Numbered from the stretch's first letter, positions 1 through 27,080 are shown. The stretch: 64,000 bases of DNA from an uncultured Gammaproteobacteria bacterium (GCA_964344145.1 CAYFME010000001.1:16896-80895), one strand, 5' to 3'. Numbers and translations: made by a program. Notes: generated by a model not told the origin, from the letters alone.

Positions 1-1
1 T

Positions 2-559: not shown

Positions 560-561
560 CT

Positions 562-1512: not shown

Positions 1513-1513
1513 T

Positions 1514-2848: not shown

Positions 2849-2854
2849 TGTCCG

Positions 2855-2883
2855 TTGACACGTTCGCGTTAACGGATTAAAAA
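2855..2883 (+). promoter_or_regulatory. candidate sigma70-type promoter inside an imperfect palindrome
   Basis: TTGACA (2855-2860), 17-nt spacer, TAAAAA (2878-2883). It overlaps the imperfect palindrome CCGTTGACACG...CGCGTTAACGG in the only sizeable intergenic gap of the 5' operon. Confidence 0.35.
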
Positions 2884-2911
2884 GAGACAGAATTTACGCT
2901 TATCTGATTCT

Positions 2912-5538: not shown

Positions 5539-5542
5539 CGGT

Positions 5543-6361: not shown

Positions 6362-7064
6362 TCATGCGCTGACCATCGTTGTCTGTTGTTTTAATGGGGA
6401 AGCGCACATCGAGGCGTGCCTCGCGTCACTGGCAAACCAAACAAGGGACGATTTTTCCGTGCTCATCATTGATGATGGATCGAACGATCGCTCAGCTATC
6501 ATTGCAGAGAAATTTGCCCAAACGCGTGCGGGATGGACACTGCGGGCTCATCCGGAAAATGCTGGACTGGTCGCGCGGTGCAATGAAGCGATCGCAACGA
6601 TTGCTACTCCGTTCTTTGCTCGTCTCGATGCAGATGATCTGTTTACTCCATACGCCGTGGAAAAAATGTATGTAGAGATGGCACGCATCGATGATGCGGC
6701 ATTTACGCTCTTTCAGCGATGGGATCTCTGGGAGGATGATACGCGTGCAATGGACGTACACGATGATCTCTATGAATGGATTGCCGCTGGAACGCTCTTT
6801 CGTACGGATGCGGTTCGGGCCGTTGGTGGATACGATAAAGAATTTTGGGAAGAGTATGATTTGTATCTCAAGTTATTGACGCAAGGGATGCGCTATCACG
6901 TTTCTCCCTTTAGTGTATACTACTACCGCCGCGGGCAGGAGAGCATGACGCAAAACCGCGCGGCAACGCTCAAGGGGTTCCGTTGTTTGGAGCAAAAATG
7001 GGGGTCCGCGGTGTTGCAGCAATACGGCAATGCTGATCGGATTCTCTCTTATTATCAACAATAA
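6336..7064 (+). CDS. family 2 glycosyltransferase
   Basis: LTIVVCCFNGEAHIEACLASLANQT...LIIDDGS. This is a GT-A N-terminus with a DxD-type motif region. The start may be the internal ATG at 6345. Confidence 0.75.
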   Translation: MKSMTTKDNHALTIVVCCFNGEAHIEACLASLANQTRDDFSVLIIDDGSNDRSAIIAEKFAQTRAGWTLRAHPENAGLVARCNEAIATIATPFFARLDADDLFTPYAVEKMYVEMARIDDAAFTLFQRWDLWEDDTRAMDVHDDLYEWIAAGTLFRTDAVRAVGGYDKEFWEEYDLYLKLLTQGMRYHVSPFSVYYYRRGQESMTQNRAATLKGFRCLEQKWGSAVLQQYGNADRILSYYQQ

Positions 7065-7067
7065 CGC

Positions 7068-7892
7068 ATGTACGTCCATATGAAACGACCTATCGTGATC
7101 GCAGAGATTGGAGAAAATTTTATCGGGGACCTTGATATCGCCCGTCGATTGATTGAGCAGGCAGCAGCAGCAGGGGCAGATTTTGCCAAATTTCAATCGT
7201 ATCGTCCGGAAACATTTGATAAGAGCGATCCGGAATATGATTGGTTCTGCAAAGTTTCTCTCTCTGATGACGATCATCGCATGCTGGCCGCACACGCGCA
7301 AAAGCACGGGATCGCCTTCATGAGTTCACCCTTTAGCTTAGAGCGCGCCCGTTTTCTCTGTGAGGGGATGGGTTGCAAAGAAATAAAGATCGCCTCTGGG
7401 ATGATGATGAACTTCCCCCTGCTCGATTATGTGAACGAGCATGCCCAGACGGTCTTTCTCTCAACCGGCATGGCAACCATTGAAGAGATTCGCGAAGCGC
7501 TCGCCCATCTTTCAAAGGTTCCGAAGGTGTATATTCTTCATTGTGTCACGCAATATCCATGCGCCGATGCTGACGCAAATCTTTCGGCAATAAACACACT
7601 GCAACGCACGTTTCCTGAGCACGAAATCGGCTATTCTGATCACACAGAGGGTGTTCTGGCACCCGTTATCGCGCATGCCATGGGAGCACGCGTGATTGAA
7701 AAGCACTTTACGTTCGACAAGAATGCAACCGAGGGAACGGATCATATTCTTTCAGCACTACCCGAAGAGCTTGGACAGATGATTACAGATATGCGCCGGG
7801 TAGAGCAGATGTATGGAAGCGGAGAAAAGGCTCCAAGGAAATCAGAGCAAGCCATTATCGATTTCGTGCGCAATCGCTTTTTAGAAGTATGA
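7068..7892 (+). CDS. NeuB-family ulosonic acid synthase, TIM-barrel domain only (no C-terminal SAF domain)
   Basis: IAEIGENFIGDLDIARRLIEQAAAAGADFAKFQSY matches the NeuB/PseI/SpsE N-terminus. At 274 aa it is too short to include the SAF domain. Confidence 0.7.
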   Translation: MYVHMKRPIVIAEIGENFIGDLDIARRLIEQAAAAGADFAKFQSYRPETFDKSDPEYDWFCKVSLSDDDHRMLAAHAQKHGIAFMSSPFSLERARFLCEGMGCKEIKIASGMMMNFPLLDYVNEHAQTVFLSTGMATIEEIREALAHLSKVPKVYILHCVTQYPCADADANLSAINTLQRTFPEHEIGYSDHTEGVLAPVIAHAMGARVIEKHFTFDKNATEGTDHILSALPEELGQMITDMRRVEQMYGSGEKAPRKSEQAIIDFVRNRFLEV

Positions 7893-8575
7893 TTGCCGGC
7901 ATTATTCAAGCTCGCATGGGGTCGACTCGTCTTGCCGGCAAGATGAACATGGAGATGCAGGGCGTTGCTCTTCTGACGTGGGTGCTGCGGCGTGTGAAGC
8001 GTGCAACACGTCTGGACGATGTTGTCTTGGCACTGCCAGATACAGCTGAAAATGATGTGCTGCACGCCATTGGTGATGAGGAAGGGGTGCGCGTTGTGCG
8101 TGGTGACGAGCAGGATGTGCTCGGTCGTTTTTTGAAGGCGGCATCGGTCGTGGGTGCGCAAACCATCGTGCGTATCTGTGCGGATAATCCATTGATCGCT
8201 CCCGAGGAGATTGATCGGCTCGTTCTTTTTTTTCAGAAGCATCCGTGTGACTACGCCTACAATCATATTCCGACAGATGATTACCCGGGACCGGACGGAC
8301 TTGGCGCGGAAATAGTGACCCGCGCCGCCCTCGATGCGAGTGCCGCGAGCACGGATTCCGATGATCATGAACATGTCACGCGCTATGTGAAGAGGCATCC
8401 GGAAACGTTCCGCCTGTTGGCAGCTCCTGCGCCGGCCGCCCTTCAGGGAATTCGTCATATGAAGTTTGATGTGGATACGCAGGCGGATTTCGATGATCTC
8501 ACCGCATTCACCTCTGGACTCACTCCACAAGCGACGCTTGAAGATATTATTGCGCAGGTACACGCAAACGCATGA
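7889..8575 (+). CDS. CTP_transf_3-family cytidylyltransferase (SpsF/PseF-like CMP-sugar synthetase)
   Basis: IIQARMGSTRLAGK glycine-rich NTP-binding motif. It is ATGA-coupled to the upstream NeuB-like gene, a classic SpsE/SpsF-type pairing. Confidence 0.7.
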   Translation: MIAGIIQARMGSTRLAGKMNMEMQGVALLTWVLRRVKRATRLDDVVLALPDTAENDVLHAIGDEEGVRVVRGDEQDVLGRFLKAASVVGAQTIVRICADNPLIAPEEIDRLVLFFQKHPCDYAYNHIPTDDYPGPDGLGAEIVTRAALDASAASTDSDDHEHVTRYVKRHPETFRLLAAPAPAALQGIRHMKFDVDTQADFDDLTAFTSGLTPQATLEDIIAQVHANA

Positions 8576-10287
8576 GCACTATCCGATTTTTTCTTAACCT
8601 CCTCGAGCCATTTCGCCCCCTTGCGATTGTACTTTTCGTTGCCATCCTGTGCTCGGCATTGTTTGAGAGTATTGGGATCGCTATGCTGGTTCCGCTGTTT
8701 GAGACGATTCTAAACGAAGGTGGGGAATCGCAACTGTCCAATGCCCTTGCGCCCGTGCTGCGATTGTTCGGTGCCCAGGAGAATGTTCCCGTTATTGCCG
8801 TGATCGTCCTGGTGATGTTTCTTGCAAAGAACGGGTTTCTTATTGCGACCGAATGGCTAAAGAGCAAGTTCATCTACCAGTTCCGCGCTTATTGGATGGA
8901 GCGCATTCACGCTTACTATATGCGCATGCCATATGGGGAATTGGTGCAGAAAAAACAAGGAACACTTATCGATACGTTGATCACGGAAACAAATAAAGGG
9001 GCGAGCGGTTTAGTGAACTTGGTGCAGTTCGTGACCGGTGTGGTGATGGTGACGGTTTTTTACACATTGCTTTTACTTGCGCATCTGGAGATGACTCTGA
9101 TTATGACCGCTGTCGCGCTCGCGTTGTATTTTGGCGTCGTGCGCACGATGAAGCGGTACTCAAAGGCTGTGGGCAAACAAGAGATCTTTTTTCAGCAGTC
9201 GCTCCATGAAGAGGCGGCAGAGAATATTCGTGCCACACGCCAAATTCGTACATTTGATCTGGAGGCCAGTGTGATCAGACGGTTTAACGAAACATTGCAT
9301 GCGCTGACGAAAATGCTCATCCGCTGGGATGTTGTGCGCGCTATTCCCAAGCCCACCGCCGAAGCCATGATTGTTGTGCTCTTTGTTGGCGTTGTGATGT
9401 GGTTGCAGCAGTATGATCCGGCACTCATGCGCACGCTGGTGCCGACCCTTGGAGTGATTGTTATTGTGGCGCAGCGCCTCTTCAATCATTTAACACAGCT
9501 GATTGTCCATCGCATGGTGGTGATTAGCTTCATGCCAGTTTTCGATTTGTTGCAGCGCGAGTTACGCGGGTTTCATTCCCTTCCCCCAGATACGCAAAAC
9601 GCACAAGCATGCACGCGTCTTTCCGACGACATTGCCTTTGCGGGGATGTGTTTTCAGTATCCGGGCAAGGAGCCACTCTTTGACAACGTGAGCTTCCAGA
9701 TTCCCCACGGGAAAACGACCGCGCTGATTGGAGCATCCGGTTCAGGAAAATCAACTATTGCCGACCTGCTCTTGGGGCTTTATGCGCCAACGAGTGGTGC
9801 GATCCTTGTCAACGGAATTGATCTGGAAACGATTGCCCCCACAACATGGCGACGGATGATCGGATTTGTGAGTCAGGATAATTTTCTCTTTCACACGAGC
9901 ATTGGCGAAAACATTCGCATCGGAACGCCCGAGGCGACGGACGAGGACATCCAGCGCGTGGCACGGCTCGCCAATGCCCATGATTTTATCACCCAGTTTC
10001 CCGAAGGATACGACACGATTGTTGGCGATGAAGGCGTGATGCTCTCGGGAGGACAGCGGCAGCGCATTGCGATCGCGCGTGCGTTGCTTCATAACCCTGA
10101 CATCCTTATTTTTGATGAGGCGACGAGCGCGTTGGACTTGGAGACCGAGCGCGCCATTCAACAAGAGATCGGTGCGTTGGCAAAAGGCAAGACGGTGATC
10201 ATCATTACGCATCGTCAAGAGGTACTTGCACACGTGGACCGCATCATCCGCATTGTTGACGGCGCCGTGCACATAGAAGATGTATGA
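8572..10287 (+). CDS. ABC exporter, fused permease + ATPase (MsbA/lipid-flippase-like)
   Basis: Six predicted TM helices N-terminally. Walker A GASGSGKST, signature LSGGQRQRIAIARAL, Walker B ILIFDEATSALD. Confidence 0.85.
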   Translation: MSTIRFFLNLLEPFRPLAIVLFVAILCSALFESIGIAMLVPLFETILNEGGESQLSNALAPVLRLFGAQENVPVIAVIVLVMFLAKNGFLIATEWLKSKFIYQFRAYWMERIHAYYMRMPYGELVQKKQGTLIDTLITETNKGASGLVNLVQFVTGVVMVTVFYTLLLLAHLEMTLIMTAVALALYFGVVRTMKRYSKAVGKQEIFFQQSLHEEAAENIRATRQIRTFDLEASVIRRFNETLHALTKMLIRWDVVRAIPKPTAEAMIVVLFVGVVMWLQQYDPALMRTLVPTLGVIVIVAQRLFNHLTQLIVHRMVVISFMPVFDLLQRELRGFHSLPPDTQNAQACTRLSDDIAFAGMCFQYPGKEPLFDNVSFQIPHGKTTALIGASGSGKSTIADLLLGLYAPTSGAILVNGIDLETIAPTTWRRMIGFVSQDNFLFHTSIGENIRIGTPEATDEDIQRVARLANAHDFITQFPEGYDTIVGDEGVMLSGGQRQRIAIARALLHNPDILIFDEATSALDLETERAIQQEIGALAKGKTVIIITHRQEVLAHVDRIIRIVDGAVHIEDV

Positions 10288-11768
10288 AGACGCGCGAGTT
10301 CACCGATTATATTGCCGAGGATACACAGGTAACACGACTGATTTATGACACGCTCCTTGCGGCGTATCGAGAATCGAGTCGCGATAGATCCCCTGCGGAA
10401 AATACATTCGGTCTGTTTTTTTGCGAGGTGTTGAAACTCCTCACGGGGACGGTGCTGCGCGCGCGCGAGTTGGATCATGAACTCGTGTCGCAAGAGATGA
10501 AACGTCGCACGCTCACGCGATGGCCGTATATCGGCTACGGAGATTTGCTCCACGGGGTTTCTACGGAGAATAAAACATACGGCCGTACGCAAGGTATGCG
10601 TGCACGACCGCGAGCGGTGCATCGCGGCGTCGAATGGCTCAGTACGCTGAGCGGTCTTTCAAAACGCAAAACCGTTGGGCTCATGAACACAGGGAATAAT
10701 CGGGCCCTTGCGCGCGCCTGCTTGTCGCGCGGATACTCCATACGATTTCTCGATGCGCGTCCGATTGCCCACCGCATGCCCCATCTTGACATCGACCTAG
10801 ACAACATAATGGCGGCGATCGATTCAGTGCATGCGCAAATCACCCTTCCTCTCGCGCCGGACGTATATAAAACGATTCTACGCCGCCATGTGGAAAGCAT
10901 CGTTGAAAGCGGAATGCCGCGTCATCCCGGTGTTGATGTGCTCGTGCGCGGCTCCGGATCGGAATTCATGAATCGGGTGCTTTCTCACGTCGCAGCGCTG
11001 CACAACATCCCCATTATCGATATTGTGCACGGCGAGGGATTCGGCATCTTAGATGAACATACGTTTGGTATTGGGGAACAGTATCTTGCTGACGCGGTCG
11101 TCGGCTACGGAGCGTTGTATGGCCAGCAGTCACAACAGTACTCACTCACACGGTATACGGATGATATGCCACAATACCTATCGACGAAGAGCGATACGCA
11201 GGCAGGTACAGGGCAACACGTCGAATCGCTTGATCTCGCTTCTCAAAAGAACGTGTTCTATTTTCCTACCTCACTTTCCGGAGATCGGTATCGATACGGG
11301 CCGTATCGTGACATGCCGGACGCCTTGTATCTACAATGGCAGCAGCATCTCACCACCCTTTTTGATCCATTGTTTATCAAGGCACATCCAAAAGAGCGAT
11401 TTCATGAGGCGCTGCGCGACACGCATGCACAGTACATCACCGAGGATCTTCGTACGATGATTGACCGTGTGGAGGTGTTCATTTTCGACTATGTTTCCTC
11501 GGCGTTTTTCTTGGCAGCGGCAACAAACAAGCCGATCATTTTTCTTGATCTCGGATTGCGCAACATCGCGCCGCACGCGCGGAAGTTGATGCAAGAGCGG
11601 ACGCACTACATTGATGTCGCGGCGTTTGGACATCTCGATCGCTCCACTCTCCTTCATGCGCTCGCCGATATACAGGAGAAAAAACACGCATTAACACATG
11701 CATGTATCACAGACAGTACAGCGAGTGGACGTTTAGAAACCATTTTTCAATTGGTGGAAGCATTATGA
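10284..11768 (+). CDS. TagF-like (CDP-alcohol/CMP-sugar phosphotransferase, Glyphos_transf-like) polymerase candidate
   Basis: The C-terminal region KAHPKE ... VFIFDYVSSAFFLAAATNKPIIFLDLG resembles the K-HP and TDYSS...KPIIFY motifs of TagF/TarL-type enzymes. The remaining ~350 aa are unassigned. Confidence 0.4.
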   Translation: MKTREFTDYIAEDTQVTRLIYDTLLAAYRESSRDRSPAENTFGLFFCEVLKLLTGTVLRARELDHELVSQEMKRRTLTRWPYIGYGDLLHGVSTENKTYGRTQGMRARPRAVHRGVEWLSTLSGLSKRKTVGLMNTGNNRALARACLSRGYSIRFLDARPIAHRMPHLDIDLDNIMAAIDSVHAQITLPLAPDVYKTILRRHVESIVESGMPRHPGVDVLVRGSGSEFMNRVLSHVAALHNIPIIDIVHGEGFGILDEHTFGIGEQYLADAVVGYGALYGQQSQQYSLTRYTDDMPQYLSTKSDTQAGTGQHVESLDLASQKNVFYFPTSLSGDRYRYGPYRDMPDALYLQWQQHLTTLFDPLFIKAHPKERFHEALRDTHAQYITEDLRTMIDRVEVFIFDYVSSAFFLAAATNKPIIFLDLGLRNIAPHARKLMQERTHYIDVAAFGHLDRSTLLHALADIQEKKHALTHACITDSTASGRLETIFQLVEAL

Positions 11769-12847
11769 CGGTAAACGTACAGGATGATATTCCATTGCTT
11801 GATGCGCTCATGCAGGACATGGAGCGTTATCCTGCGCATCAACCCACGAATTTCTGGAAGCCCTATGTGGCGCGCATTGATCATGCCATCCGTCAGGACG
11901 GTCTGTCCGCTTTTCGCAGCAATCGCGCCATTATCAAAGGCTATGAGTACACGACGCTTCCGGGGGAGAACCCGATGCGGCGTAATCGCTTCGCGCGCTT
12001 TGCGGACACATGCATGCGCGTACCACCACTTTCCTTGCTGCGTAAACCATATCAAGACATGTTCTACAAACTGCAAGAGCAGGTGCGAGAGGGTATCGCG
12101 CGGGAGTATCGATTGCTCTATCAGTACTGCGCAACCGAGCCTCGGATGCGAACGATTTTGAAGGCGGTGCACGAGCAGGGGGTGGGCGATCCGGTCACGA
12201 TTTCGATAGACGAACGGGCGTACTCAGAGAATTTGCTCAATCATATCCCCGCGGTGTCGCTCATGACCACGGTACGTCCGCTTGCACAGACGAAACGTAT
12301 CCTCGAGATTGGCGGCGGGTACGGTGTGTTTGCACAGATCATCACGCGATTGCAGCAGGATGTACTCGACTATCTTGTCATGGTCGATATCCCTCCGGTG
12401 CTGTATGTTGCTACGCAATATCTTAAAGCCCTTTTTCCTGATCGCGTACTTGATTATCGCGCCGTGCGTGATGTGCAGACCATTGATGCGCGCATGTTGC
12501 AAGGAAAGATTTTGCTGATCCCGCCATGGATGCTGGAGCGCCTTGCGTGCGATTTTGACCTTCTGTGGAGTGTGGGGGCATTTCAAGAGATGGAAAAAGA
12601 TCGCGTGGAGATGTACCTCGATCAGGGGGCAAAGCGGTGTGCTTCCATCTTCACGTCAGGCCTTATTCGTGGGCATGCGCCGGGTGCGGGCGGGCAGCGC
12701 GAGCCCATTGCGTTCGATTGGATTGTTGATGCCATTTGCGCGCGTGGGTATACTCATGTACCGCTTCCTTCCGATGTCCCGGAACGCACTGCCCTGCGCG
12801 CGTGCGTAGCGAACTACGATTTTGGCTATTTTGAAAAGGTAACTTAA
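11765..12847 (+). CDS. hypothetical protein, possible SAM-dependent methyltransferase-like fold
   Basis: ATG at 11765 forms an ATGA overlap with the upstream stop. The internal ILEIGGGYGVFAQI resembles a glycine-rich SAM-binding motif. No further recognisable signature. Confidence 0.35.
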   Translation: MTVNVQDDIPLLDALMQDMERYPAHQPTNFWKPYVARIDHAIRQDGLSAFRSNRAIIKGYEYTTLPGENPMRRNRFARFADTCMRVPPLSLLRKPYQDMFYKLQEQVREGIAREYRLLYQYCATEPRMRTILKAVHEQGVGDPVTISIDERAYSENLLNHIPAVSLMTTVRPLAQTKRILEIGGGYGVFAQIITRLQQDVLDYLVMVDIPPVLYVATQYLKALFPDRVLDYRAVRDVQTIDARMLQGKILLIPPWMLERLACDFDLLWSVGAFQEMEKDRVEMYLDQGAKRCASIFTSGLIRGHAPGAGGQREPIAFDWIVDAICARGYTHVPLPSDVPERTALRACVANYDFGYFEKVT

Positions 12848-12861
12848 TTCCGAATTGCATT

Positions 12862-13629
12862 ATGGAAACACCAAAGCAACATGATGTCGTGTGGGACGAG
12901 CAAAAAATTGCAGATTATTGGAATATTTGGGGAAACTTGAAACCAAAGAGTCCTTGGTTTGGCGAAAAAGCCGGTACGTGGATAAGGAAAGAGGTAGAAG
13001 AACTAAGGCCACATTTTAGCGGGAAGTCCCCTAAGGTGTTGGACATTGGTTGCGGTTCCGGCGTTCTTTTGCACAAGACGTTTGCTCCAATGGGATTTGA
13101 TTGTTATGGGGTCGACCTTTCACCGGAGCGCATGGAGCGCGCGCGCCGAGACTATCCGGAGATGACCTTTGCCGTCGGATCGATGAAGTCGTCGCCGTTT
13201 CCGGATGATACCTTCGATCTGGTGGTTTCCACGCAAATGGTAGAGCATTTGCTTGATGATGATCTTGAGCCCTCGTTTGCAGAGATGTCGCGCCTTGTAA
13301 AACCGGGCGGGCTCGTGATGATTACGACGCGATATGATGAAGACATGAGCCAGGGGCATAACGTCTGTCCGGATTGTCACGCCGTCTATCGTTACTCGCA
13401 GCACTTGCAATCGTTTGACATTCCGCGCATGACTGCCCTACTTGAGGGTGTGGGTCTTTCCCCATTGATCGTGAAACGGAGTCGTTGCCGGGATCATTTG
13501 CGCGACATGATCCCACAGCGTCGCATCCCGCTCGTTCGTCATTTAGGCCCCCTGTTGTATTGGCTGTTTGCCGATAAGCTGGATCGCGAGATGGGAAAGT
13601 ATCTTTACGCGGTAGGGAAGAAGGAATAG
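12862..13629 (+). CDS. class I SAM-dependent methyltransferase
   Basis: VLDIGCGSGVLL motif I, LVKPGGLVMITT post-II motif, and a CPDCHAVYRY zinc-ribbon-like insert. Confidence 0.75.
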   Translation: METPKQHDVVWDEQKIADYWNIWGNLKPKSPWFGEKAGTWIRKEVEELRPHFSGKSPKVLDIGCGSGVLLHKTFAPMGFDCYGVDLSPERMERARRDYPEMTFAVGSMKSSPFPDDTFDLVVSTQMVEHLLDDDLEPSFAEMSRLVKPGGLVMITTRYDEDMSQGHNVCPDCHAVYRYSQHLQSFDIPRMTALLEGVGLSPLIVKRSRCRDHLRDMIPQRRIPLVRHLGPLLYWLFADKLDREMGKYLYAVGKKE

Positions 13630-13665
13630 AAACAGAAGACCCCGCACCGGACAGGTGACGGGGTC
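13621..13665 (-). terminator. candidate minus-strand rho-independent terminator
   Basis: 11-bp GC-rich stem with one bulge: GACCCCGCACC-ggaca-GGTGACGGGGTC (13638-13665). On the minus strand it is followed by TTCTGTTTCTATTCCTT. It sits just downstream of the minus-strand stop at 13770. Confidence 0.4.
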
Positions 13666-13769
13666 ACTCTGTCGATGCGGGGTAGTTCACCCAGCGCCCT
13701 GCGTGGTGCGGGGGCTGCACCCCGGAGGCGGGCACGAGATGCGATTTCTGTGGGATGCGGTTGAGGTTG

Positions 13770-14006
13770 TCACGCGCTGGTGGACGTGTTCTGGCTTCGC
13801 ATCAGGTTCTGCCTCGCTCGGCGCATGATCACGACCAGCGCGGGCATGACGATGCACAAGATGGCGAAGATGGCGACGGAGGTCTTGGGGTGCGGTGAGC
13901 CGGGGATCGCAGCCGCCGACAGGAGGAGGATGAGAATAGCACCAAACCAGCTCACGCCCTCTCCGACCTTGGCCCAGAAGATCTCACGCTTGAAATAGTC
14001 CCCCAT
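13770..14006 (-). CDS. small 2-TM membrane protein (78 aa), high-GC islet
   Basis: Internal ATG at 14006-14004 is preceded by AGGAGG and overlaps the upstream stop (TGATG). Translation MGDYFKREIFWAKVGEGVSWFGAILILLL...AIFAILCIVMPALVVIM has two hydrophobic helices. The upstream extension of the listed 156-aa ORF has no RBS and is probably not translated. Confidence 0.5.
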   Translation of the reverse strand: MGDYFKREIFWAKVGEGVSWFGAILILLLSAAAIPGSPHPKTSVAIFAILCIVMPALVVIMRRARQNLMRSQNTSTSA

Positions 14007-14344
14007 CACTTTACCTCCTGCTGGATTTTCGACTCCGTCTTGTGCAGGTGGGCGAAGATCTTGTAGAAGAGCCAGCACATGAGCGCCATGGGGATGCCCA
14101 GCAGCGTCGCGCCGAACGCCTCGAGGACGTTGCCGGCTAGAAGGGGCGACACCGCGAAGCAGCACATCGCGCTGAAGTAGATCGTCTTGTTGAAGACCAT
14201 CAGGGTCATGACGTTCCCGGACTGCTCCGGGTAGGTGCACTGCAGGTAGTAGCGCACCGTGTTCCAGTTGAGCAGGTTGTAGACCACCCCGATGAACAGG
14301 GCGACCGCTCCGATGTAGAGCGTGATGGGAAGTGGCAGATCCAT
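14006..14344 (-). CDS. small 3-TM membrane protein (112 aa), high-GC islet
   Basis: GGAGAAAG RBS precedes the ATG at 14344. Three hydrophobic helices (ITLYIGAVALFIGVVY, IYFSAMCCFAVSPLLAG, LLGIPMALMCWLFYKIF). Translationally coupled to the downstream small membrane gene. Confidence 0.55.
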   Translation of the reverse strand: MDLPLPITLYIGAVALFIGVVYNLLNWNTVRYYLQCTYPEQSGNVMTLMVFNKTIYFSAMCCFAVSPLLAGNVLEAFGATLLGIPMALMCWLFYKIFAHLHKTESKIQQEVK

Positions 14345-14463
14345 GGCTTTCTCCAGTCGACTGGGTGAAGTTGCCGACGTGTCAAACTAGCATACAATGG
14401 CTCTGCCGTCAACCAGCTGTTGACGTGAGGCCATTTTTCTGTTAACCATCCTCTCTCAATTAC

Positions 14464-15030
14464 ATGATTATGCTATCATTTAGCAAAAGGGATATGAGTA
14501 ACGTTTGTAACGATAAATTTAAGAATCTTGTCCTCTACGTCCTATCTCACGAAGATTATAGGGAGGGAGGTATTAAGAAGTTGAATAAACTCCTGTACTT
14601 TATTGATTTCTATTTTTACAGAGACCACGAGGAGCTCATCTCGAACGTAGACTACGCAAAGGCAGACATGGGGCCTGTGGTTGACGGGTATAAGACTATT
14701 TTCAGTGCATTAGCCGAAGATGGCGTGATTGAGCAGGTGTCGAACGTGGGCTTTGTGGCGTATAAGGCGAACCAAGCACCAGATTTGAGTGATTTTTCTT
14801 CAGATGAGATCGCCCACATCGGACGAGTACTCGATCAGTATGGGAAACTTTCTGGAAGTGACTTGGAGTTAATCTCTCATCAGCAGCAACCGTGGGTGCT
14901 TACTGAAAGCATGGGAGATAAGATTGATCCTGATTTAGCACTCTTAATTGCAGATAGTGATAATGAAGATGTGGAAGTTCAAAATCAGGATTTGAAGAAC
15001 GAACTGATTGATCTTGCAAATTCTGTGTAG
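14464..15030 (+). CDS. Panacea-domain (DUF4065, SocA-like) putative antitoxin
   Basis: KKLNKLLYFIDFYFYRDHEELISNVDYAKADMGPVVDGY matches the DUF4065/Panacea core (KLxKLLYF...GPV..). The gene is AT-rich relative to its flanks. Confidence 0.6.
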   Translation: MIMLSFSKRDMSNVCNDKFKNLVLYVLSHEDYREGGIKKLNKLLYFIDFYFYRDHEELISNVDYAKADMGPVVDGYKTIFSALAEDGVIEQVSNVGFVAYKANQAPDLSDFSSDEIAHIGRVLDQYGKLSGSDLELISHQQQPWVLTESMGDKIDPDLALLIADSDNEDVEVQNQDLKNELIDLANSV

Positions 15031-15033
15031 CCT

Positions 15034-15363
15034 ATGGCTAAAATTACGGTTGAAGTCCTGGAGTCGCTACAAAAGGAGGTAGATAAAGGTGGTCCGAAAA
15101 TCAAGAAATTATTCGAAAAACAAAAACGATTCATGGAAATGAATCCCAACTATCCATCACTGGGACGAACCAAGCTGCAGGGCGTCTTTGACAAATATGG
15201 TGATCCACTTTGGGAAATTCGTTTGAACAAAAAGGACAGAATCGTATTTGTGGAAAGAAACAGCGGCGAAAGAGTCATCTGGTTGAAGATTGTTGACCAC
15301 GATTCACTCGTCAGAAAGAACACGATTCATGCAAAAGGAAACTATAAAGACACCCCTTGCTGA
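15034..15363 (+). CDS. small protein with RelE/ParE-like toxin C-terminus (putative cognate toxin)
   Basis: LWEIRLNKKDRIVFVERNSGERVIWLKIVDH resembles the RelE/ParE superfamily motif LYELR..RiiY...v.vL.i.hR. It starts 4 nt after the Panacea gene stop. Confidence 0.45.
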   Translation: MAKITVEVLESLQKEVDKGGPKIKKLFEKQKRFMEMNPNYPSLGRTKLQGVFDKYGDPLWEIRLNKKDRIVFVERNSGERVIWLKIVDHDSLVRKNTIHAKGNYKDTPC

Positions 15364-15368
15364 TTTTT

Positions 15369-16427
15369 TTAACTCTTTTTCGCAACAATCCGCAAGACAT
15401 CACGATTCGGTCCGTACTGGAAATCAGGATGCTGTAATAATGTGTAGAAATCGGGCGCGCGGTGTTTTGCAAGCATCGTAAGCCAGCCGCGCGTTGCGCG
15501 CTGTCCAAGCACCATACGGCTCGCGTTTAAGATCAACTGTTTCTTTTGCTGGCGGGCATGCGTTCTTTTAAGATTCGCATGCGTTGTTTTTGACGAGTGC
15601 ACTCCCTCTTTAACGTCCGTGGTCATTTCTTGCGCCGCCGCCGTGGATTCGAGGGATCGTACCGTGCGCTTCACATCTTCTTGTTTGCCCGCGCTGCCGA
15701 TAAATTGTGTTTCCAAGCCGGCGTTTGCGCAGACGCGCTCGAGTGATTCCATGCTGAAGAAGGAGAGGTGGGGAATTGAGTAATACTGATAGCGTGTCAG
15801 ATCTTCATTTGGGACTTCGCAAATAAAGATACCGCCTGGTGCGAGGAGCCGTGCCACATGCGCGACAATCCCCGGAACATCGTGTGCATTGAAATGCTCC
15901 AGCGAGTGGGACATGACAATCACGCGAAACGTATTGTCCGGAAGCTCGGCAATGGGCTCCGGACCGAACAATTGAGGAACAATCGTTGCGCCAAGTTTTT
16001 GTAGTCGAGGATGAGCGTCTTCCTGCGGCTCAACCGCCCAATACTCCATCGGCACATTAAGGCGCGTACATGTATGGAAGAAGTGCCCGGGACCAGGACC
16101 GATATCCAAAAGTTTATCCGTTGGTTTTGGATCAACATACTGGCGCATGAGCAGTACCTGCGCGAGCGCGCGCGGCTCAAAGTGAAATGGATTGCCAACA
16201 TTCAAGAGGGGATTTTTCCCCCCTTTCATGGCTCTGCCGGTGTAGGCTTTTGTGTAGAAGGCATCGAGGTCCTCCTCTGCAATGCGCTCCCCGCCGAAGC
16301 TAAACCGACAGTTGTTGCACGAATAGATGCTCAGCTGACGAAAGGAGGACGGCATGTCCATGGTGCCGGTGTAGTAGTCTCTTTTCCTCTCCGTATTTGT
16401 TGGCGTGGTACAGATGGGGCAGTTCAT
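15369..16427 (-). CDS. class I SAM-dependent methyltransferase with N-terminal CxxC zinc ribbon
   Basis: Start chosen at the ATG (16427) preceded by GGAG. MNCPICTTP...CNNCRF zinc ribbon, LLDIGPGPGHFF motif I, LAPGGIFICEVPNED. Confidence 0.7.
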   Translation of the reverse strand: MNCPICTTPTNTERKRDYYTGTMDMPSSFRQLSIYSCNNCRFSFGGERIAEEDLDAFYTKAYTGRAMKGGKNPLLNVGNPFHFEPRALAQVLLMRQYVDPKPTDKLLDIGPGPGHFFHTCTRLNVPMEYWAVEPQEDAHPRLQKLGATIVPQLFGPEPIAELPDNTFRVIVMSHSLEHFNAHDVPGIVAHVARLLAPGGIFICEVPNEDLTRYQYYSIPHLSFFSMESLERVCANAGLETQFIGSAGKQEDVKRTVRSLESTAAAQEMTTDVKEGVHSSKTTHANLKRTHARQQKKQLILNASRMVLGQRATRGWLTMLAKHRAPDFYTLLQHPDFQYGPNRDVLRIVAKKS

Positions 16428-16549
16428 GGGAATCTCCGTATTATGAATGCTGGGAGAGTATAGCAACAGGACGGAGACCATGGCAATACTCCTGTTTCAG
16501 AACAATTGACAGGCTTTCTTTGTATGCTACCATCGAATCCACAATACCT

Positions 16550-18949
16550 ATGGACAGTTCGGCACAAAAAAGAGCGGTGATTCTCGGTGCGGGTCCGGTG
16601 GGACTCGTTTCTGCGTGGCAGCTTGCAGAGCAAGGGTGGGCGGTAGAGATTTTTGAGAAGCAGGATCGCGTTGGGGGGATGTGCCGCACATGGAAGTGGC
16701 GCAATTTTCTTGTTGATACCGGACCACACATTTATCACACACCAGACACGCAACTTGCACAATTTTGGGAAGAACATTTCGGCGACCTTTTTGTGAAGGG
16801 GGAGTTTTGGTGTAAGAACGTTCGTGGGGAGCATTTTGATGAGTATTGGGACTACCCGCTATCGTGGGAGAGTATTGGTAAGTACCCACAGGAACTCAAG
16901 GAGACCATTCTCCAAGAGTTAGATGAACGAAGTGGGTACGACAAAGCGCGTGCGCGAAATTATACCGAGTACATGGATGCGTTAGTTGGTCCAACACTCC
17001 GAAAGATGTTTTTTGAAACGTATCCAAAAAAGGTTTGGGGCATTACGACCGACGAGATGACACCGGACTGGGCGCCCAAGCGTATGGAGTTTCGGCAGAA
17101 CGTCACTCCCTTTTATCACAACCAATGGAATGCGGTGGGGAAGTATGGAACGGGATGTATTTACGAACGGATCGCCCAAAAGATTCGAGCGCTCGGAGGC
17201 ACGATCCATCTTAATACAGAGGTGCGCAAGATTTGCGCGGACGGGAAGACATTAACGGCGATTGAATTTGCCGGTGATCGCGCGCCGTTGGTGCTCACGC
17301 CGGATGATGTGGTGATTTCCAGTTTACCCATTACGCTCACCGCGCGCTTTTTCGGCCATCAGAGCAAGCTTTCTTTTCGCGGTATCTGTGCCATCTATCT
17401 TGCGTATAAGAAGAAGGAAATTTTGCCGGAGGGGGTTCATTGGCTCTATTATGGTGCGGATGACATTGATTTTAATCGCATTACGGAGTCCAAGAAACTC
17501 GCCCCAAATGTGGCACCCGAAGATGAAACCTTTTTAACGATCGAGGTGACGTATAGCCGCGGAGATGACATTGACACCATGGATCCTGAGGTGCTTGCCA
17601 AGCGCATTGCACAGCAGGTGGAGCGTGTGGGGCTGGCGCGCGAAGACGAGGTGATTGATTGGAGTATTAACAAAGAGCCGTTTGTTTATCCATTGCAATA
17701 TGCCGGGTATCAGGATGAACTCGTAAAGACGCGCGCGGTTGTATCGCAATTTTCGAATCTCTATTCCATTGGTACCGGTGGAGATTATAACTACGCGGAT
17801 AGTCAAATTCTCTTTCACAAAGCCTTTGATACGGTGGCGATTCTTTGTGATAAGGATGCGTCGTACACGCAGGTGATTCGCGAGCAACGTCACGTAGAGC
17901 TCAATGAGACGATGGAGATCGGCGATCGCCGCATCGGAGAGGGTGAGCGACCGTTTATCATTGCCGAAGCAGGGATGAATCACAACGGAAGCATCGAGCT
18001 GGCAAAAGAATTGGTTGATGCCGCCGCGCGTGCAGGTGTTGATGCGGTGAAGTTTCAGACGTTCCGTGCAGCAAACCGTATTTCGCAGAAAGTGAAGGGC
18101 GTGCGTTACGCAGAGACAGTTATTGGGCTGGAAGAGACGCTCTATGAGATGTTCGACCGCTTAGCGATGTCCCCGGAAATGCACAAAGAGCTGTTTGCGT
18201 ATGCACGCGCGCAGGGCATTGAGATTTTTTCAACACCATTTGATGAGATCAGCGTTCGCTTGCTAGAGGAGCTCGGCGTGCCCATGTACAAGATCGCTTC
18301 GATGGATCTCGTGAACCTACCGCTCATTCGTACCGTGGCGCGCACCGGTAAGCCAATGATTCTGTCAACCGGGATGTCTACGATGGGACAGATTGAAGAG
18401 GCGCTGGATGCCGTTCGTGCACAAGGGAACCCAAACGCAGCACTTTTGCATTGCAACTCGTCGTATCCGGCGGCACCAAATGAGATGAACCTGCGCGCGA
18501 TTCAAACTATGCGCACAGCGTTTCGCGTGCCCACCGGGCTTTCGGATCACACGCTTGGTCTATCAGCATCGCACACGGCGCTTGCGCTGGGAGCCAATAT
18601 TATTGAGCGTCATTTTACCCTCGACCGTACGCTTGAAGGTCCGGATCATATTCTTTCCTCGGAACCGGATGAAATGGCCGAGCTTGTCGGGCTTGCGCGC
18701 ACCATTCCGGCGATGCTTGGCGATGGAGTGAAACGTATTCAGCCAAACGAGTACCAGACGTTGAATCAACAGCGAAAGAGTATCTATGCAGCGCGAAATA
18801 TCAAGGTGGGCGAGACGATAGACGCCGATGCGATTACCGTAAAGGGTCCTGGCGGGGGGCTGTTGCCGCGCTACGTCGAGATGGTGATTGGTCGCCCTGC
18901 ACGCCAAGACATCGAAGCCGATTATCCAATAACGTGGGACAATGTATAA
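16550..18949 (+). CDS. fusion: FAD/NAD(P)-binding oxidoreductase (amine-oxidase/Glf-like fold, N) + full-length NeuB-family ulosonic acid synthase with SAF domain (C)
   Basis: Start at the ATG (16550) after a 122-bp divergent intergenic region. N-terminus RAVILGAGPVGLVSAWQLAEQGWAVEIFEKQDRVGGMCRT is a dinucleotide-binding GxGxxG-EK-GG motif. From ~residue 480: PFIIAEAGMNHNGSIELAKELVDAAARAGVDAVKFQTF (NeuB TIM barrel). C-terminal SAF-like segment IKVGETIDADAITVKGPGGG. Confidence 0.7.
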   Translation: MDSSAQKRAVILGAGPVGLVSAWQLAEQGWAVEIFEKQDRVGGMCRTWKWRNFLVDTGPHIYHTPDTQLAQFWEEHFGDLFVKGEFWCKNVRGEHFDEYWDYPLSWESIGKYPQELKETILQELDERSGYDKARARNYTEYMDALVGPTLRKMFFETYPKKVWGITTDEMTPDWAPKRMEFRQNVTPFYHNQWNAVGKYGTGCIYERIAQKIRALGGTIHLNTEVRKICADGKTLTAIEFAGDRAPLVLTPDDVVISSLPITLTARFFGHQSKLSFRGICAIYLAYKKKEILPEGVHWLYYGADDIDFNRITESKKLAPNVAPEDETFLTIEVTYSRGDDIDTMDPEVLAKRIAQQVERVGLAREDEVIDWSINKEPFVYPLQYAGYQDELVKTRAVVSQFSNLYSIGTGGDYNYADSQILFHKAFDTVAILCDKDASYTQVIREQRHVELNETMEIGDRRIGEGERPFIIAEAGMNHNGSIELAKELVDAAARAGVDAVKFQTFRAANRISQKVKGVRYAETVIGLEETLYEMFDRLAMSPEMHKELFAYARAQGIEIFSTPFDEISVRLLEELGVPMYKIASMDLVNLPLIRTVARTGKPMILSTGMSTMGQIEEALDAVRAQGNPNAALLHCNSSYPAAPNEMNLRAIQTMRTAFRVPTGLSDHTLGLSASHTALALGANIIERHFTLDRTLEGPDHILSSEPDEMAELVGLARTIPAMLGDGVKRIQPNEYQTLNQQRKSIYAARNIKVGETIDADAITVKGPGGGLLPRYVEMVIGRPARQDIEADYPITWDNV

Positions 18950-19706
18950 CGTTGAAGGCAAATCCATACTGGTGACGGGAGCGCTGGGGCAGCTTGGACG
19001 CGCGTATTGCACGGCGTTGGCACAAGCCGGGGCGCGGGTTATTGTTTCGGACGTTGATGGAGAAGCGTGTGGAAAATTTGCAGGCGAGCTGATCGGAGAT
19101 GTGGATCATATTGGTATCCCACTCGATGTGGGCGATCCTGCATCGGTAAAGAGTGCGTTTGCGACGATTGAGGAGCAGTACGGCACGCTGGATGTACTGG
19201 TGAACAACGCCGGCATTGCGGTCTTCACGCCGTTTGCGGAGCGTAGTTTTGAGGATTTTATGCGCGTCTTTCGCGTGAACGCCGGTGGCGTCTTCCTTTG
19301 CACACAGGCCGCGAGTGCGCTCATGCAAAAGAACGGAACCAAAGGGGTCATTGTGAACATCGGATCCATTTATGGTGTGGTGAGCAGTAATCCGAGTATC
19401 TACACTGATTGCAACCGAATGAACTCGGAGTGTTATAGTGGATCCAAAGCCGCTATTATTCACATGACGAAATACTTTGCCGCGCATTTAGCGCCATATA
19501 GTATCCGGGTGAATTGCCTGTCGCCAGGCGGCGTCTTTAATCATCAAGGGGAAGATTTTGTAGAAAACTACACGAAGAAGACCCCGATGGCACGCATGGG
19601 CAGCGAAGAGGACATGGCGCGCGCCTTGCTGTTTCTCGCGTCAAGGGATTGTCCTTACCTTACTGGTCATAATCTTATTGTCGATGGCGGATTCACCGCT
19701 TGGTAA
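18942..19706 (+). CDS. SDR-family oxidoreductase
   Basis: ILVTGALGQLGRA Rossmann motif, NNAG, YSGSKAA (YxxxK). Confidence 0.8.
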   Translation: MYNVEGKSILVTGALGQLGRAYCTALAQAGARVIVSDVDGEACGKFAGELIGDVDHIGIPLDVGDPASVKSAFATIEEQYGTLDVLVNNAGIAVFTPFAERSFEDFMRVFRVNAGGVFLCTQAASALMQKNGTKGVIVNIGSIYGVVSSNPSIYTDCNRMNSECYSGSKAAIIHMTKYFAAHLAPYSIRVNCLSPGGVFNHQGEDFVENYTKKTPMARMGSEEDMARALLFLASRDCPYLTGHNLIVDGGFTAW

Positions 19707-20845
19707 TTATGGAAAATCGAGTCTATCTTGAGCAGTGGCTTGTCGACGCGGTTGCGCTGGCAAAAAAAATACACTCTTGTGCCCAAGAACGTGGCGGGAT
19801 GAGTGCGTTTACGATTGCGACGACTGTCAAGGCGGTTGATCGTACTCGTCCGTATCTCACACCACTGCGTTACTTGCGCGATGGAGCGATTGGCGGTGCC
19901 CTTGCATTTTCTCAGTTGCAGGCACGTCTCCTGTGTCGCGAGGTTGATGGCCTCGTTGATTGGATTTTGGTTGATGCCGAGAAAAAGATCCCGGTGAGCT
20001 TTGGGTATGATGAGGAGACGATTCAGCATTTTGCCATTGAGCCACCAGAAGTGAAGACGCATTCACGCATTCATGTTGAGCTGGGGAATCTCAGCGCGGC
20101 CTGTGCGCCGTATGCAAAGAAAAGCACGCTGTGTGAGTACAAGCCAAATGATATTACGGTTGAGGCTGTATGGCATAGTATCGCGCGCATGAAGGGGATT
20201 CTTTCCGGCAAGAAGATTGCCATCATTGGGTGTGGGAATGTGGGATTTAAATTGGCACTAAAATTGGTCGAGAGCGGATGCAGCGTTGAAATTCATCGTC
20301 GTGACGCACACCGTGGTTCATGTATGGCTGACACGATCAATATCGTGAAGTCTCCATCAACCGTCGCGATCGCACATTACAATCCCGACCCGCTGCAAGC
20401 ATCGCTGTTTGCAGATGTCATCGTTGGCTGTACAAACGGCACCCCGGCAATTACCTGGGAGATGATGCAGGCTATGCGTCCCGATGGTGTGGTGATTGAT
20501 CTTGGAAAAGGAACGGTTCATGAGGATGCGCTTGCGCGCGCCATCAAGGCCGGTATCTCCGTGGTGCGCGCCGATGTCGGCTCCGGTATGGAGGGACTCA
20601 TTGCTACCATGAGGCGCAGTCACGAGCTGCATCGCGCAGAGATTGGCAGGCGTCTGCTTGGAGGTGGCGTGGCTATTGTCTCGGGCGGATACATGGGGCT
20701 TGATGGAGATGTGATCGTGGACAACTATCATGATCCAACCTATGTTGTTGGCATTGCAAACGGTCGCGGAGATCTCCGCATTGATCATACAGAAGCAGAC
20801 AAGAAGGCGCTTGCGAGTGTTCAACAGATGATCGCACCCGTATAA
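19700..20845 (+). CDS. NAD(P)-binding Rossmann-fold protein of unknown specificity (amino-acid/opine dehydrogenase-like)
   Basis: KIAIIGCGNVGFKLALKLVESGCSVEIHRRD dinucleotide-binding motif in the middle of the protein. No other signature recognised. Confidence 0.35.
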   Translation: MVIMENRVYLEQWLVDAVALAKKIHSCAQERGGMSAFTIATTVKAVDRTRPYLTPLRYLRDGAIGGALAFSQLQARLLCREVDGLVDWILVDAEKKIPVSFGYDEETIQHFAIEPPEVKTHSRIHVELGNLSAACAPYAKKSTLCEYKPNDITVEAVWHSIARMKGILSGKKIAIIGCGNVGFKLALKLVESGCSVEIHRRDAHRGSCMADTINIVKSPSTVAIAHYNPDPLQASLFADVIVGCTNGTPAITWEMMQAMRPDGVVIDLGKGTVHEDALARAIKAGISVVRADVGSGMEGLIATMRRSHELHRAEIGRRLLGGGVAIVSGGYMGLDGDVIVDNYHDPTYVVGIANGRGDLRIDHTEADKKALASVQQMIAPV

Positions 20846-20848
20846 TCT

Positions 20849-21532
20849 ATGAAACTTGTTGCCGTCATCCCCGCGCGCGCAGGGAGCAAGAGCGTGCCAA
20901 AGAAAAATATCCGTCCGCTTGATGGAAAGCCCCTGCTTCAATACTCGGTTGAGTACGCGCTTGCGTGCCCGCTCGTTGATCGGGTCGTTGTTTCAACGGA
21001 TTCGCAAGAATTTGCCGATGTTGCCAAGAAGGCAGGCGCCGAGGTGCCTTTTTTGCGCCCCGCAGAGTTTGCGACGGATGACGCTCAGGATTATGGCGTG
21101 ATGCGTCATGCCTTAGACGCGCTGGAGGAGCTTTGGGGAGAAAATATTGACCTCATTGCTCTGTTACGCCCGACTTCTCCCCTGCGCCCAAAGGGTCTTA
21201 TTGAGCGTGCTGTGACACTGATGGATCAGCATCCGGAGGCGACGCATATCCGCTCGGTTGCCAAGAGCGTGGAGCATCCATATCGGCAATGGAAATACAA
21301 TGGTCCCTTTATCGAAGGGCTTTTTTCTGACGTTGATGAGTCTTATAACATTCCACGACAAGCCCTTCCGGAGATGTTTTTTCAAACAGGGGATTTGGAA
21401 ATGATGCGGCGTGAAACACTGCTCGCGGGGTCGATCACCGGTTCACGTGTGCTGCCTCTGATTATTGATCACGATGCGATGGTAGACATCGATACCGAGG
21501 CGGATTTTGCCGAAGCAACAAGCCGTGTATGA
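20849..21532 (+). CDS. N-acylneuraminate (CMP-NulO) cytidylyltransferase, NeuA-like
   Basis: VAVIPARAGSKSVPKKNIRPLDGKPLL is the canonical NeuA/CTP_transf_3 N-terminus. Length 227 aa. Confidence 0.8.
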   Translation: MKLVAVIPARAGSKSVPKKNIRPLDGKPLLQYSVEYALACPLVDRVVVSTDSQEFADVAKKAGAEVPFLRPAEFATDDAQDYGVMRHALDALEELWGENIDLIALLRPTSPLRPKGLIERAVTLMDQHPEATHIRSVAKSVEHPYRQWKYNGPFIEGLFSDVDESYNIPRQALPEMFFQTGDLEMMRRETLLAGSITGSRVLPLIIDHDAMVDIDTEADFAEATSRV

Positions 21533-22413
21533 ATCGTGACCAGCTTTGCATTGGCACGGTCAAGTTTGGTGTGCCCGACTATGGGTTTTCGTCGCAAGAA
21601 GGTCGTGCGTTTGATGCAGGGGCGTTTGTGCGCGACGTGTTGGCGCGCGGCATTCATCGCTTTGACACCGCGCCACGGTATGGGGACAGTGAAGCAGTAC
21701 TTGGACGAGCCTTTGCCGGCCTGGGCGAGCCCGTGTGGATATCGTCAAAAGGAGAAGACCTTGTCGTGAGGAGTCCAGATAATGCGGTACACATGGAAGA
21801 AAGCGCGCGCCGGTCGATCGAACGCCTTGGCGTTGACGCGCTTGATCTTTTCTATCTCCACCAAAACGAGCTTACGATCTTGCAAGATCCAACCGTTCAC
21901 GCAGGCCTCGCGCGTCTGAAGGAGCTTGGCATTGTCCGTGCGGTTGGAGCGTCTGTGTATAGTCACGACGAATGCGCGTATGCGCTTGGAAGTGGCGTTT
22001 TTGATTACATACAAGTCCCTGTGAGTGTTTTGGATGTTGGGTTTTATGATCGGTTTATCAAAAACAATACATCAGCGGTGAAGTTTGTTGCGCGCTCGCT
22101 TCTGCTGCAGGGCTTGATTGTGAATCGAACCTACGGCCGCGAACGGATCAAACAGTGGGAGGGCATCGCAGACCATCTTGCGTTTCTCGATGAACACGCG
22201 GCCGCGCTTGGCCTGTCGACGCTCGAACTCGCCCTTGCGTTTGTTTTTTCTCTTCCAGACATCGACCACGCCATCATCGGAACGACCTCTATTGGCAACG
22301 TCGAAAAAAATATCGCGTGTCTTGACCTGGCGCTCCCCGAGGAGATTCACCGGTCGCTTTACGCTCGCGCCGTCAAGCCGCGAACATGGACAAATCCGCG
22401 TCATTGGGTTTAA
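21529..22413 (+). CDS. aldo/keto reductase
   Basis: GTVKFGVPDYG...FDTAPRYGDSE AKR N-terminal signature. ATGA coupling to the upstream gene. Confidence 0.8.
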   Translation: MNRDQLCIGTVKFGVPDYGFSSQEGRAFDAGAFVRDVLARGIHRFDTAPRYGDSEAVLGRAFAGLGEPVWISSKGEDLVVRSPDNAVHMEESARRSIERLGVDALDLFYLHQNELTILQDPTVHAGLARLKELGIVRAVGASVYSHDECAYALGSGVFDYIQVPVSVLDVGFYDRFIKNNTSAVKFVARSLLLQGLIVNRTYGRERIKQWEGIADHLAFLDEHAAALGLSTLELALAFVFSLPDIDHAIIGTTSIGNVEKNIACLDLALPEEIHRSLYARAVKPRTWTNPRHWV

Positions 22414-22425
22414 GATGAGGCAATT

Positions 22426-27079: not shown

Positions 27080-27080
27080 T

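Follow-up and report, generated by a model that had tools for sequence, protein, structure and literature searches.

A bicistronic membrane-protein unit, very probably acquired horizontally, in a cell-surface-sugar locus of an uncultured bacterium

Anatomy of the A/B unit

The DNA considered here is a 64,000-nt stretch from an uncultured Gammaproteobacteria bacterium (GCA_964344145.1, CAYFME010000001.1:16896-80895), hereafter the window, and our subject is a pair of small adjoining genes in it, A and B, together with the signals that surround them (Table 1). Both lie on the minus strand, as does one methyltransferase gene at 15369..16481; all other credible genes of the window are on the plus strand. 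As originally predicted, the two reading frames are coupled: open reading frame (ORF) calls and reading of the sequence agree on a TGATG overlap (14008..14004), where the last base of the A stop codon, TGA, doubles as the first base of the B start codon, ATG, and on an AGGAGG ribosome-binding site (RBS) for B. The closest relative of the pair, carried by a Candidatus Uhrbacteria genome described below, has AAGAGG at the equivalent position.

The sizes and helix counts first proposed for the products, 112 residues with three transmembrane (TM) helices and 78 residues with two, hold up in hydropathy analysis and, for A, in an AlphaFold2 model as well. The model (predicted local distance difference test, pLDDT, 76) places helices at residues 7-25, 27-36, 39-69 and 73-111, which together with the hydropathy peaks give three TM helices; B has two hydropathy peaks, at 17-36 and 43-61. 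The C-terminal tails read HLHKTESKIQQEVK in A and RRARQNLMRSQNTSTSA in B. From the distribution of Lys and Arg and the positive-inside rule, we infer an N-out/C-in topology for A in all five known members of its family, with loop 1 and the C-terminus cytoplasmic.

Upstream of A lies a sigma-70-type promoter, which the automatic promoter scan does not list because its -10 rule demands 4 of 6 matches. That scan does list a plus-strand promoter-like sequence, TTGCCG-16-TACAAT, at 14371..14398 within the A leader. The strong hairpin reported to follow the pair is indeed present on the minus strand, directly 5' of UCUUCUGUUU, and folding of the 3' region yields -67 kcal/mol (z=-4.8), a stability that none of 200 shuffles attains. 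Homology between the window unit and its Uhrbacteria counterpart coincides with these boundaries: the alignment begins about 8 nt upstream of the -35 hexamer, takes in TCGGCAAC and CTGGAG.AA.CCATG, and ends at the terminator. With promoter and terminator both predicted from sequence, we hold it very probable that A and B form a self-contained bicistronic unit of about 0.8 kb (about 13630..14421), consisting of promoter, A, coupled B and terminator, that was acquired horizontally.

Both junctions of the insertion that holds this unit are reproduced by contigs of three sequencing runs at 99.9-100% identity, and these independent runs exclude an assembly chimera. In one of them, ERR2281801, the unitig assembly breaks within gene B, with contigs ending at 13879 and 13907 and overlapping by 29 nt, and a third run shows one mismatch in 1,846 bp. 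The break and the mismatch may reflect strain-level variation within the cassette.

Table 1. Features of the A/B unit, its insertion site, the Uhrbacteria repeats and the five A loci (window coordinates unless a locus is named; GC3, G+C content at third codon positions)
Feature	Coordinates	Strand	Description
Whole insertion	13630..15368		1,739 bp separating the stops of two convergent methyltransferase genes
Intrinsic terminator (predicted)	13628..13683	minus	Long G+C-rich hairpin 13639..13683, then UCUUCUGUUUC; abuts the stop of the plus-strand methyltransferase gene
Gene B	13770..14006	minus	78 residues; two-TM hairpin protein with basic C-terminal tail
Gene A	14006..14344	minus	112 residues; integral membrane protein, 3 TM helices
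RBS of B	14014..14019	minus	AGGAGG, 7 nt before the B ATG, within the last A codons (QQEVK)
5' leader of A	14345..14378	minus	GTCGGCAAC plus RBS GGAG 6 nt before the ATG
A/B promoter (predicted, read from sequence)	14384..14412	minus	Sigma-70 type; -35 TTGACG (14412..14407), 17-nt spacer, -10 TAGTTT (14389..14384)
PanA-type antitoxin candidate	14464..15030	plus	SocA_Panacea domain, Pfam PF13274 E=2.2e-17, GPV motif; GC 0.416
109-residue partner of PanA	15034..15363	plus	3 nt downstream of PanA; GC 0.412
Direct repeats, Uhrbacteria locus	L014 9858..9904 and 10710..10741		Palindromic 8-7-8 core ATGTGGTC-7 nt-GACCACAT; extra half-copy upstream
Window A			Neighbours: sugar methyltransferases; GC3 of A 0.92 vs host genes 0.55
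Uhrbacteria A (L014)			Neighbours: Cu-oxidase_4, polA; GC3 0.885 vs 0.40-0.43
L015 A (P0004)			Neighbour: TrmB regulator; GC3 0.83 vs 0.50-0.58 (three orphan neighbours 0.72-0.74)
L021 A			Neighbours: unknown proteins; GC3 0.755 vs 0.43-0.58
L029 A			Neighbours: rsmH-ftsL; GC3 0.735 vs 0.58

Composition, insertion site and the adjoining Panacea module

The foreign composition claimed for the pair lies well outside local variance, and the signal resides at the third codon position. Overall G+C content (GC) is 0.590 in A and 0.616 in B against 0.522 in the window, and the 575-bp A/B span falls in the top 1.2% of sliding 575-bp windows (z=2.6). GC at third positions (GC3) is far more distinctive: 0.92 in A (z=10.4) and 0.85 in B (z=8.4), compared with 0.553±0.035 in 52 other genes of the window and a ceiling of 0.705 across 152 chunks of 112 codons from background genes. 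The shift runs through codon choice as a whole (e.g., ATC 0.93 vs 0.42, TTC 0.91 vs 0.26, TAC 0.88 vs 0.38), and the periodicity is specific to the frame, with a GC2 of 0.35 in A.

RNA structure does not explain this richness. The A mRNA folds unremarkably (z=-1.9 and -0.17), Rfam gives no match at E<=1 in 13000..15500 and none in the whole window, which also has no tRNAs, and no consensus secondary structure emerges across the five 5' leaders of A (window 14345..14378, L014 9935..10000, and the regions upstream of A in L015, L021 and L029). A codon bias of highly expressed genes was also considered as a cause and rejected, as rpsO in the Uhrbacteria locus has a GC3 of only 0.45.

Comparison with two syntenic loci, L030 (GCA_030674435.1) and L032, shows what the site looks like when unoccupied. 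These have a common gene order of NeuB, CTP-transferase, ATP-binding-cassette (ABC) transporter, two unknown genes, methyltransferase, minus-strand methyltransferase and amine-oxidase/NeuB fusion. The plus-strand methyltransferase that ends at 13629 of the window is 64% identical to its L030 counterpart and 63% identical, over 83% of the query, to that of L032; for the minus-strand methyltransferase the values are 49% and 55%. In both relatives the convergent methyltransferase genes are 27 nt apart or overlap, and the insert is lacking. The empty sites and orthologous flanks thus identify 13630..15368 as an insertion, and the window locus is a conserved cell-surface-sugar biosynthesis locus carrying a 1.74-kb composite insertion.

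The insertion consists of two parts of opposite composition, the A/B cassette (GC about 0.60) and a Panacea toxin-antitoxin (TA) module (GC 0.41), and the low GC of the latter beside the GC3-rich A and B argues for separate origins. Since both parts are absent from L030 and L032, the description of the region as a composite accessory patch stands.

The candidate antitoxin of this module carries the GPV signature described for PanA (PMC8832971), although it scores 27.3 bits against NCBIfam SocA, far under the 190-bit cut-off. The 109-residue protein encoded just downstream is likely the PanT toxin. Its sole family match is weak (Gp49/HigB-like, E=0.073) and it has no relative in the PDB; it may represent an undescribed type of PanT. 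The original prediction was right that the A/B pair adjoins a Panacea module and wrong that the two stand back-to-back: they are head-to-head and divergent, with a 119-bp upstream region in common. Within that region a palindrome, GTCAAC-CAGCT-GTTGAC (14408..14424), overlaps TTGACG hexamers on both strands and is a possible shared operator.

Upstream of a ClpB-like gene (60796..63480), most of positions 1..60000 forms a one-strand cell-surface-sugar and nonulosonic-acid locus with several unusual gene fusions, among them aminotransferase-epimerase (2912..4861), amine-oxidase-NeuB (16397..18949), LicD-DUF4147-MOFRL (24836..27079) and glycosyltransferase-alcohol dehydrogenase (34625..36607).

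Relatives of A and their surroundings

Relatives of A are exceedingly few. A word-indexed search of 5.8 billion clusters returned a single homologue of A (P0002, of the same length and 63% identical) and none of B, an exhaustive HMMER search of 1.84 billion representatives with a two-sequence profile added only P0004 and P0005, and a metagenome DNA scan added L029 (43% identity over the best local segment, 40% over the full length). The family thus stands at five lineages with pairwise identities of 25-63%. P0002, the closest relative, derives from a Candidatus Uhrbacteria metagenome-assembled genome (MAG; PFJC01000022), the only one returned by a scan of the genome collection, and the other three homologues come from metagenomes, at least one of them from groundwater. 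Family A is therefore a very rare, newly defined and uncharacterised family, at least one lineage of which belongs to a Candidate Phyla Radiation bacterium.

The window and Uhrbacteria A proteins are of equal length, and their 63% identity, with a ratio of nonsynonymous to synonymous substitution rates (dN/dS) of about 0.46, indicates purifying selection. The best-conserved stretch is the loop after helix 1, W27-N-x-V-R-Y-Y-x-Q-C-x-Y-P-E-Q, which is nearly identical between members with 40-43% overall identity. A coupled second gene is present only in the window and Uhrbacteria (two of five lineages). The Uhrbacteria B has 86 residues and a TAATG overlap, and its similarity to the window B is not significant (E=0.098); the two proteins agree in size class, two-helix hairpin, a GSP motif in the loop, a basic C-terminal tail and the one-base stop/start overlap. 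Because B is so unalike in genomes whose A is 63% identical, we view A as the conserved core and B as a fast-evolving, dispensable partner.

The five copies of A occupy unlike neighbourhoods (Table 1), and each has its own predicted intrinsic terminator. A promoter of the form TTGACR-17-TAnnTT precedes four of the five, the exception being L021, where the -35 hexamer is TAGACA. Own promoter and own terminator in five dissimilar settings mark these copies as self-contained units. In three lineages A stands without B behind a near-consensus promoter. A leader motif, GTCG soon after the -10 and CAACCC further on, recurs in four of the five homologues and is degenerate in the window. We conclude that family A travels as single- or two-gene promoter-to-terminator units that resemble morons.

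Morons were first described in lambdoid prophages, and the classical definition demands a prophage host. The A/B unit shares with morons and genomic islets its own predicted promoter and terminator, deviant composition, precise insertion between conserved genes, empty sites in relatives and a small accessory cargo, which in known cases is often a membrane protein. It differs in that its host locus is a chromosomal sugar-biosynthesis cluster rather than a prophage. Acquired DNA is usually GC-poorer than its host, whereas the cargo here is GC-richer, and the same cargo family keeps this bias in five hosts: the GC3 of A exceeds that of the surrounding host genes in all five loci, the exception to the contrast being three GC3-rich orphan neighbours in L015.

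The Uhrbacteria copy offers a lead on mobility. Its 837-bp unit is bracketed by 32-nt direct repeats (AAAATGTGGTCGCTTAGTGACCACATC...; repeat sequence ATGTGGTCGCTTAGTGACCACAT) that have no further occurrence in the 20-kb Uhrbacteria locus and lie on either side of the unit wherever a metagenomic contig of that locus extends far enough to include them. A gene for a Xer-type tyrosine recombinase lies 2.7 kb from the cassette (L014 6165..7142). Sites of the attC type carry a GTTRRRY motif; the Uhrbacteria repeats are shorter and lack it, and hence are unlike attC. Bracketing repeats with a palindromic core and a nearby Xer-type gene are reminiscent of Xer-dependent modules (dif/pdif; integrative mobile elements exploiting Xer, IMEX) and of other small cassettes that lie between core sites of tyrosine recombinases. 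In pdif modules, however, the repeats are inverted and not direct, the window has no such repeats, and neither an excision product nor a single-repeat empty site was seen for the Uhrbacteria cassette, so that the likeness is a lead only. A putative remnant of the repeat upstream of the window -35 was rejected, being no better than shuffles.

One could go further and regard the A units as miniature mobile cassettes of a new class, exchanged among the ultra-small bacteria (Candidate Phyla Radiation) of groundwater. Such cassettes would move whole, from promoter to terminator, through short palindromic sites like those beside the Uhrbacteria copy, perhaps by means of the one Xer-type recombinase that the host has. 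Whatever the host, their codon usage would stay GC-rich, and their cargo, a three-helix membrane protein with the conserved cytoplasmic loop, would act in cell-cell or host-symbiont interaction or in defence. We consider the odds to be long against this bold extension.

Three of the five A loci have further GC3-rich orphan units close by. In L015 (557..4839), P0004 is part of a larger GC3-rich patch with orphan genes of 357, 261 and 153 residues at GC3 0.72-0.74, compared with 0.50-0.58 in the TrmB and GIY-YIG genes; this patch may be closer to the native context of the family or to a larger mobile one. In the Uhrbacteria locus, an orphan gene on the minus strand (L014 8414..9193) with GC3 0.80 against about 0.41 sits one gene (Cu-oxidase_4, about 0.65 kb) from the A/B cassette; its product is lipoprotein-like and without a family match, and it has its own TTGACA-17-TACATT promoter and a terminator. 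The window itself holds a second GC3-rich islet at 33026..33829. Its orphan ORF of 178 residues (33207..33743, plus strand; GC 0.63, GC3 0.83, z=7.8) is preceded by its own TTGACA-17-TATATT promoter (33026..33054) with a leader of some 150 nt, and a hairpin spans 33804..33829. This islet sits just upstream of an NYN-domain gene (33948..34535) and has no Pfam, PHROG or viral relative.

Possible roles of A and B

Searches for known relatives of A and B were consistently negative. Pfam, NCBIfam, PHROGs and PADLOC gave nothing above threshold for the window A or B, and the four other A proteins, for which the comparison covered Pfam and/or PHROGs, match no holin, phage-exclusion or membrane-effector family. 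A sequence search of solved structures (profiles of four and five A members; B) found nothing, and Foldseek comparison of the A model with PDB and BFVD gave no match at E<0.4, returning generic helical bundles; PomA and ZorB appear only among non-significant fold matches of A (E>2). Phage, plasmid and viral-contig searches likewise revealed no relatives of A or B, only insignificant hydrophobic matches to a TctA permease.

Two candidate families were examined and set aside. The MotA/TolQ/ExbB proton-channel family (PF01618) was rejected because its score of 20.7 bits falls below the cut-off of 22.9, covers only residues 68-106 and occurs in one of four members. Paired small multidrug-resistance (SMR) transporters consist of two coupled genes encoding about 105-120 residues each, both products with four TM helices and a membrane-embedded Glu in TM1; A and B have three and two TM helices, A has no acidic residue in TM1, and there is no Pfam match, to Multi_Drug_Res or otherwise.

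We propose that A and B would be made from a single mRNA transcribed from the A/B promoter, the TGATG overlap and AGGAGG site giving roughly equimolar amounts of the two proteins. A would insert N-out/C-in with three helices and so display the conserved loop (WN-VRYY-QC-YPEQ) to the cytoplasm. B, a helical hairpin with a basic cytoplasmic tail, would bind A in the membrane as a fast-evolving and dispensable modulator. The occurrence of A alone behind a near-consensus promoter in three lineages makes a constitutively lethal pore-former unlikely. As read from sequence, the pair might then be a non-lethal accessory membrane complex, of an immunity or exclusion type or altering the envelope, rather than a hole-forming killer; this assignment of role is tentative, and by itself we hold it doubtful. 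For the whole account, in which anatomy, acquisition and mechanism are taken together, we estimate a probability of roughly 0.45, and it is the best explanation overall.

Several points weigh against that account. Neither flanking repeats nor a recombinase turned up in the window itself, where the Uhrbacteria 32-nt repeat is absent even when three mismatches are allowed. No donor of matching composition was found, and a recent transfer from a high-GC donor is deduced from composition and empty sites only. No homology or fold match in the family, PDB and Foldseek searches bears on what A and B do. The non-lethal, protective reading draws solely on the occurrence of A alone behind its near-consensus promoter, yet this promoter might be under repression, or the leader, with its recurrent GTCG...CAACCC, might have a regulatory function.

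The alternative that survives best is that A is an ordinary, lineage-restricted membrane protein of ultra-small groundwater bacteria, such as a small transporter or channel subunit or an envelope factor, whose high GC3 stems from a gene-specific process, e.g., GC-biased repair in frequent recombination, and not from a recent GC-rich donor. GC3 is raised in all five hosts though the copies are only 25-63% identical; to account for this by recent transfer in each of the five cases, from a donor that 15 billion proteins do not reveal, is difficult. Purifying selection on A and the housekeeping surroundings of some copies (polA; rsmH-ftsL) point the same way. Yet the empty sites show that the window lineage can do without A, which is thus an accessory gene there, and a housekeeping family would not be nearly so rare. 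The sub-threshold MotA_ExbB match occurs in one of four members, and no transporter family or fold matches. On this evidence we judge an ordinary protein improbable.

The idea with which the locus was first presented, that A and B form a holin/antiholin-like, phage-exclusion or membrane-disrupting effector module, found no footing in family, viral or fold matches or in a lysis context. In its most concrete version, a holin/antiholin-like or abortive-infection pair, A would make lethal membrane holes that B restrains, or the reverse. In size, TM number and inferred topology there is a gross resemblance: A is like the class I holins (lambda S type; about 110 residues, three TM helices, N-out/C-in, charged C-terminus) and B like class II (S21 type; about 70-80 residues, two TM helices, N-in/C-in). 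Charged cytoplasmic C-termini and close coupling of two small membrane genes are also common to A/B and holin/antiholin pairs, the unit is horizontally acquired and lies beside a TA module, the two making up a small accessory-gene hotspot, and fast evolution such as that of B is common in antagonist pairs. A small TM protein with a charged hydrophilic C-terminal tail, which describes A and B alike, is nevertheless a generic trait and does not discriminate.

More specific signs of a holin are missing. Neither the Pfam Phage_holin_* families nor the PHROG holins match at E<=1 (five A proteins against PHROGs, four against Pfam, and the window B), PADLOC gives no match, there are no viral relatives, and in none of the five A contexts do the immediate neighbours, whether annotated or called, include an endolysin or phage gene. 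A has no dual-start motif, its highly conserved cytoplasmic loop is unusual for holins, and in most lineages it stands alone behind a near-consensus promoter, which sits badly with a lethal pore-former dependent on a partner. With nothing but generic size and topology behind it, and with context, family match and dual start all against it, the holin/antiholin idea seems to us distinctly unlikely.

A further alternative places A and B under the control of PanA, as one or two extra membrane toxins, so that a Panacea system of three or four genes would be read from divergent promoters. Membrane depolarisation by small TM peptides is the mode of action of many validated PanT toxins (PMC8832971), the neighbouring PanA gene appears genuine, and the palindrome between A and PanA extends over both -35-like hexamers. 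In the published scheme, however, PanT and PanA genes are no more than 100 nt apart, and their arrangement, of two or three genes, recurs in two or more species (PMC8832971). PanA already has a same-strand partner within this spacing, the 109-residue gene 3 nt downstream; A is on the opposite strand, 119 nt away, with its own predicted promoter and terminator. A Panacea gene is missing from all four of the other A loci, and the composition contrast (GC 0.60 vs 0.41) is sharp. The lack of conserved adjacency and the partner that PanA already has place A/B outside the PanA module as defined in that study (PMC8832971), and a role as PanA-controlled toxins is very unlikely. Lastly, chance ORFs in a GC-rich non-coding or misassembled stretch, a concern because GC-rich DNA here yields long spurious ORFs in several frames, are highly improbable for the pair as a whole and effectively refuted for A by the frame-specific GC3 periodicity (0.92 vs GC2 0.35), a homologue of equal length with 63% identity and dN/dS below 1, correctly placed RBSs, promoter and terminator, the want of an Rfam match or unusual mRNA structure, and junctions reproduced in three runs.

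The preferred account, a horizontally acquired two-gene unit encoding a putative membrane complex, describes an object of a kind already known: a small moron-like islet beside a TA module. The locus provides a clean, base-pair-resolved case in which one convergent-terminator gap of a conserved glycan locus has taken up two accessory modules, unrelated to each other and opposite in composition, and the cargo is a new, very rare protein family whose loop is sharply conserved. A tempting but unsupported defence or holin annotation is also removed, though in practical terms the gain is modest. What is unusual is that a GC-rich synonymous signature is retained in five hosts of differing base composition, and that the Uhrbacteria copy is bracketed by repeats. 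Should this signature stem from a common pool of mobile genes, or from a bias that recombination imposes in ultra-small bacteria, it would have implications for how reduced genomes gain envelope functions.

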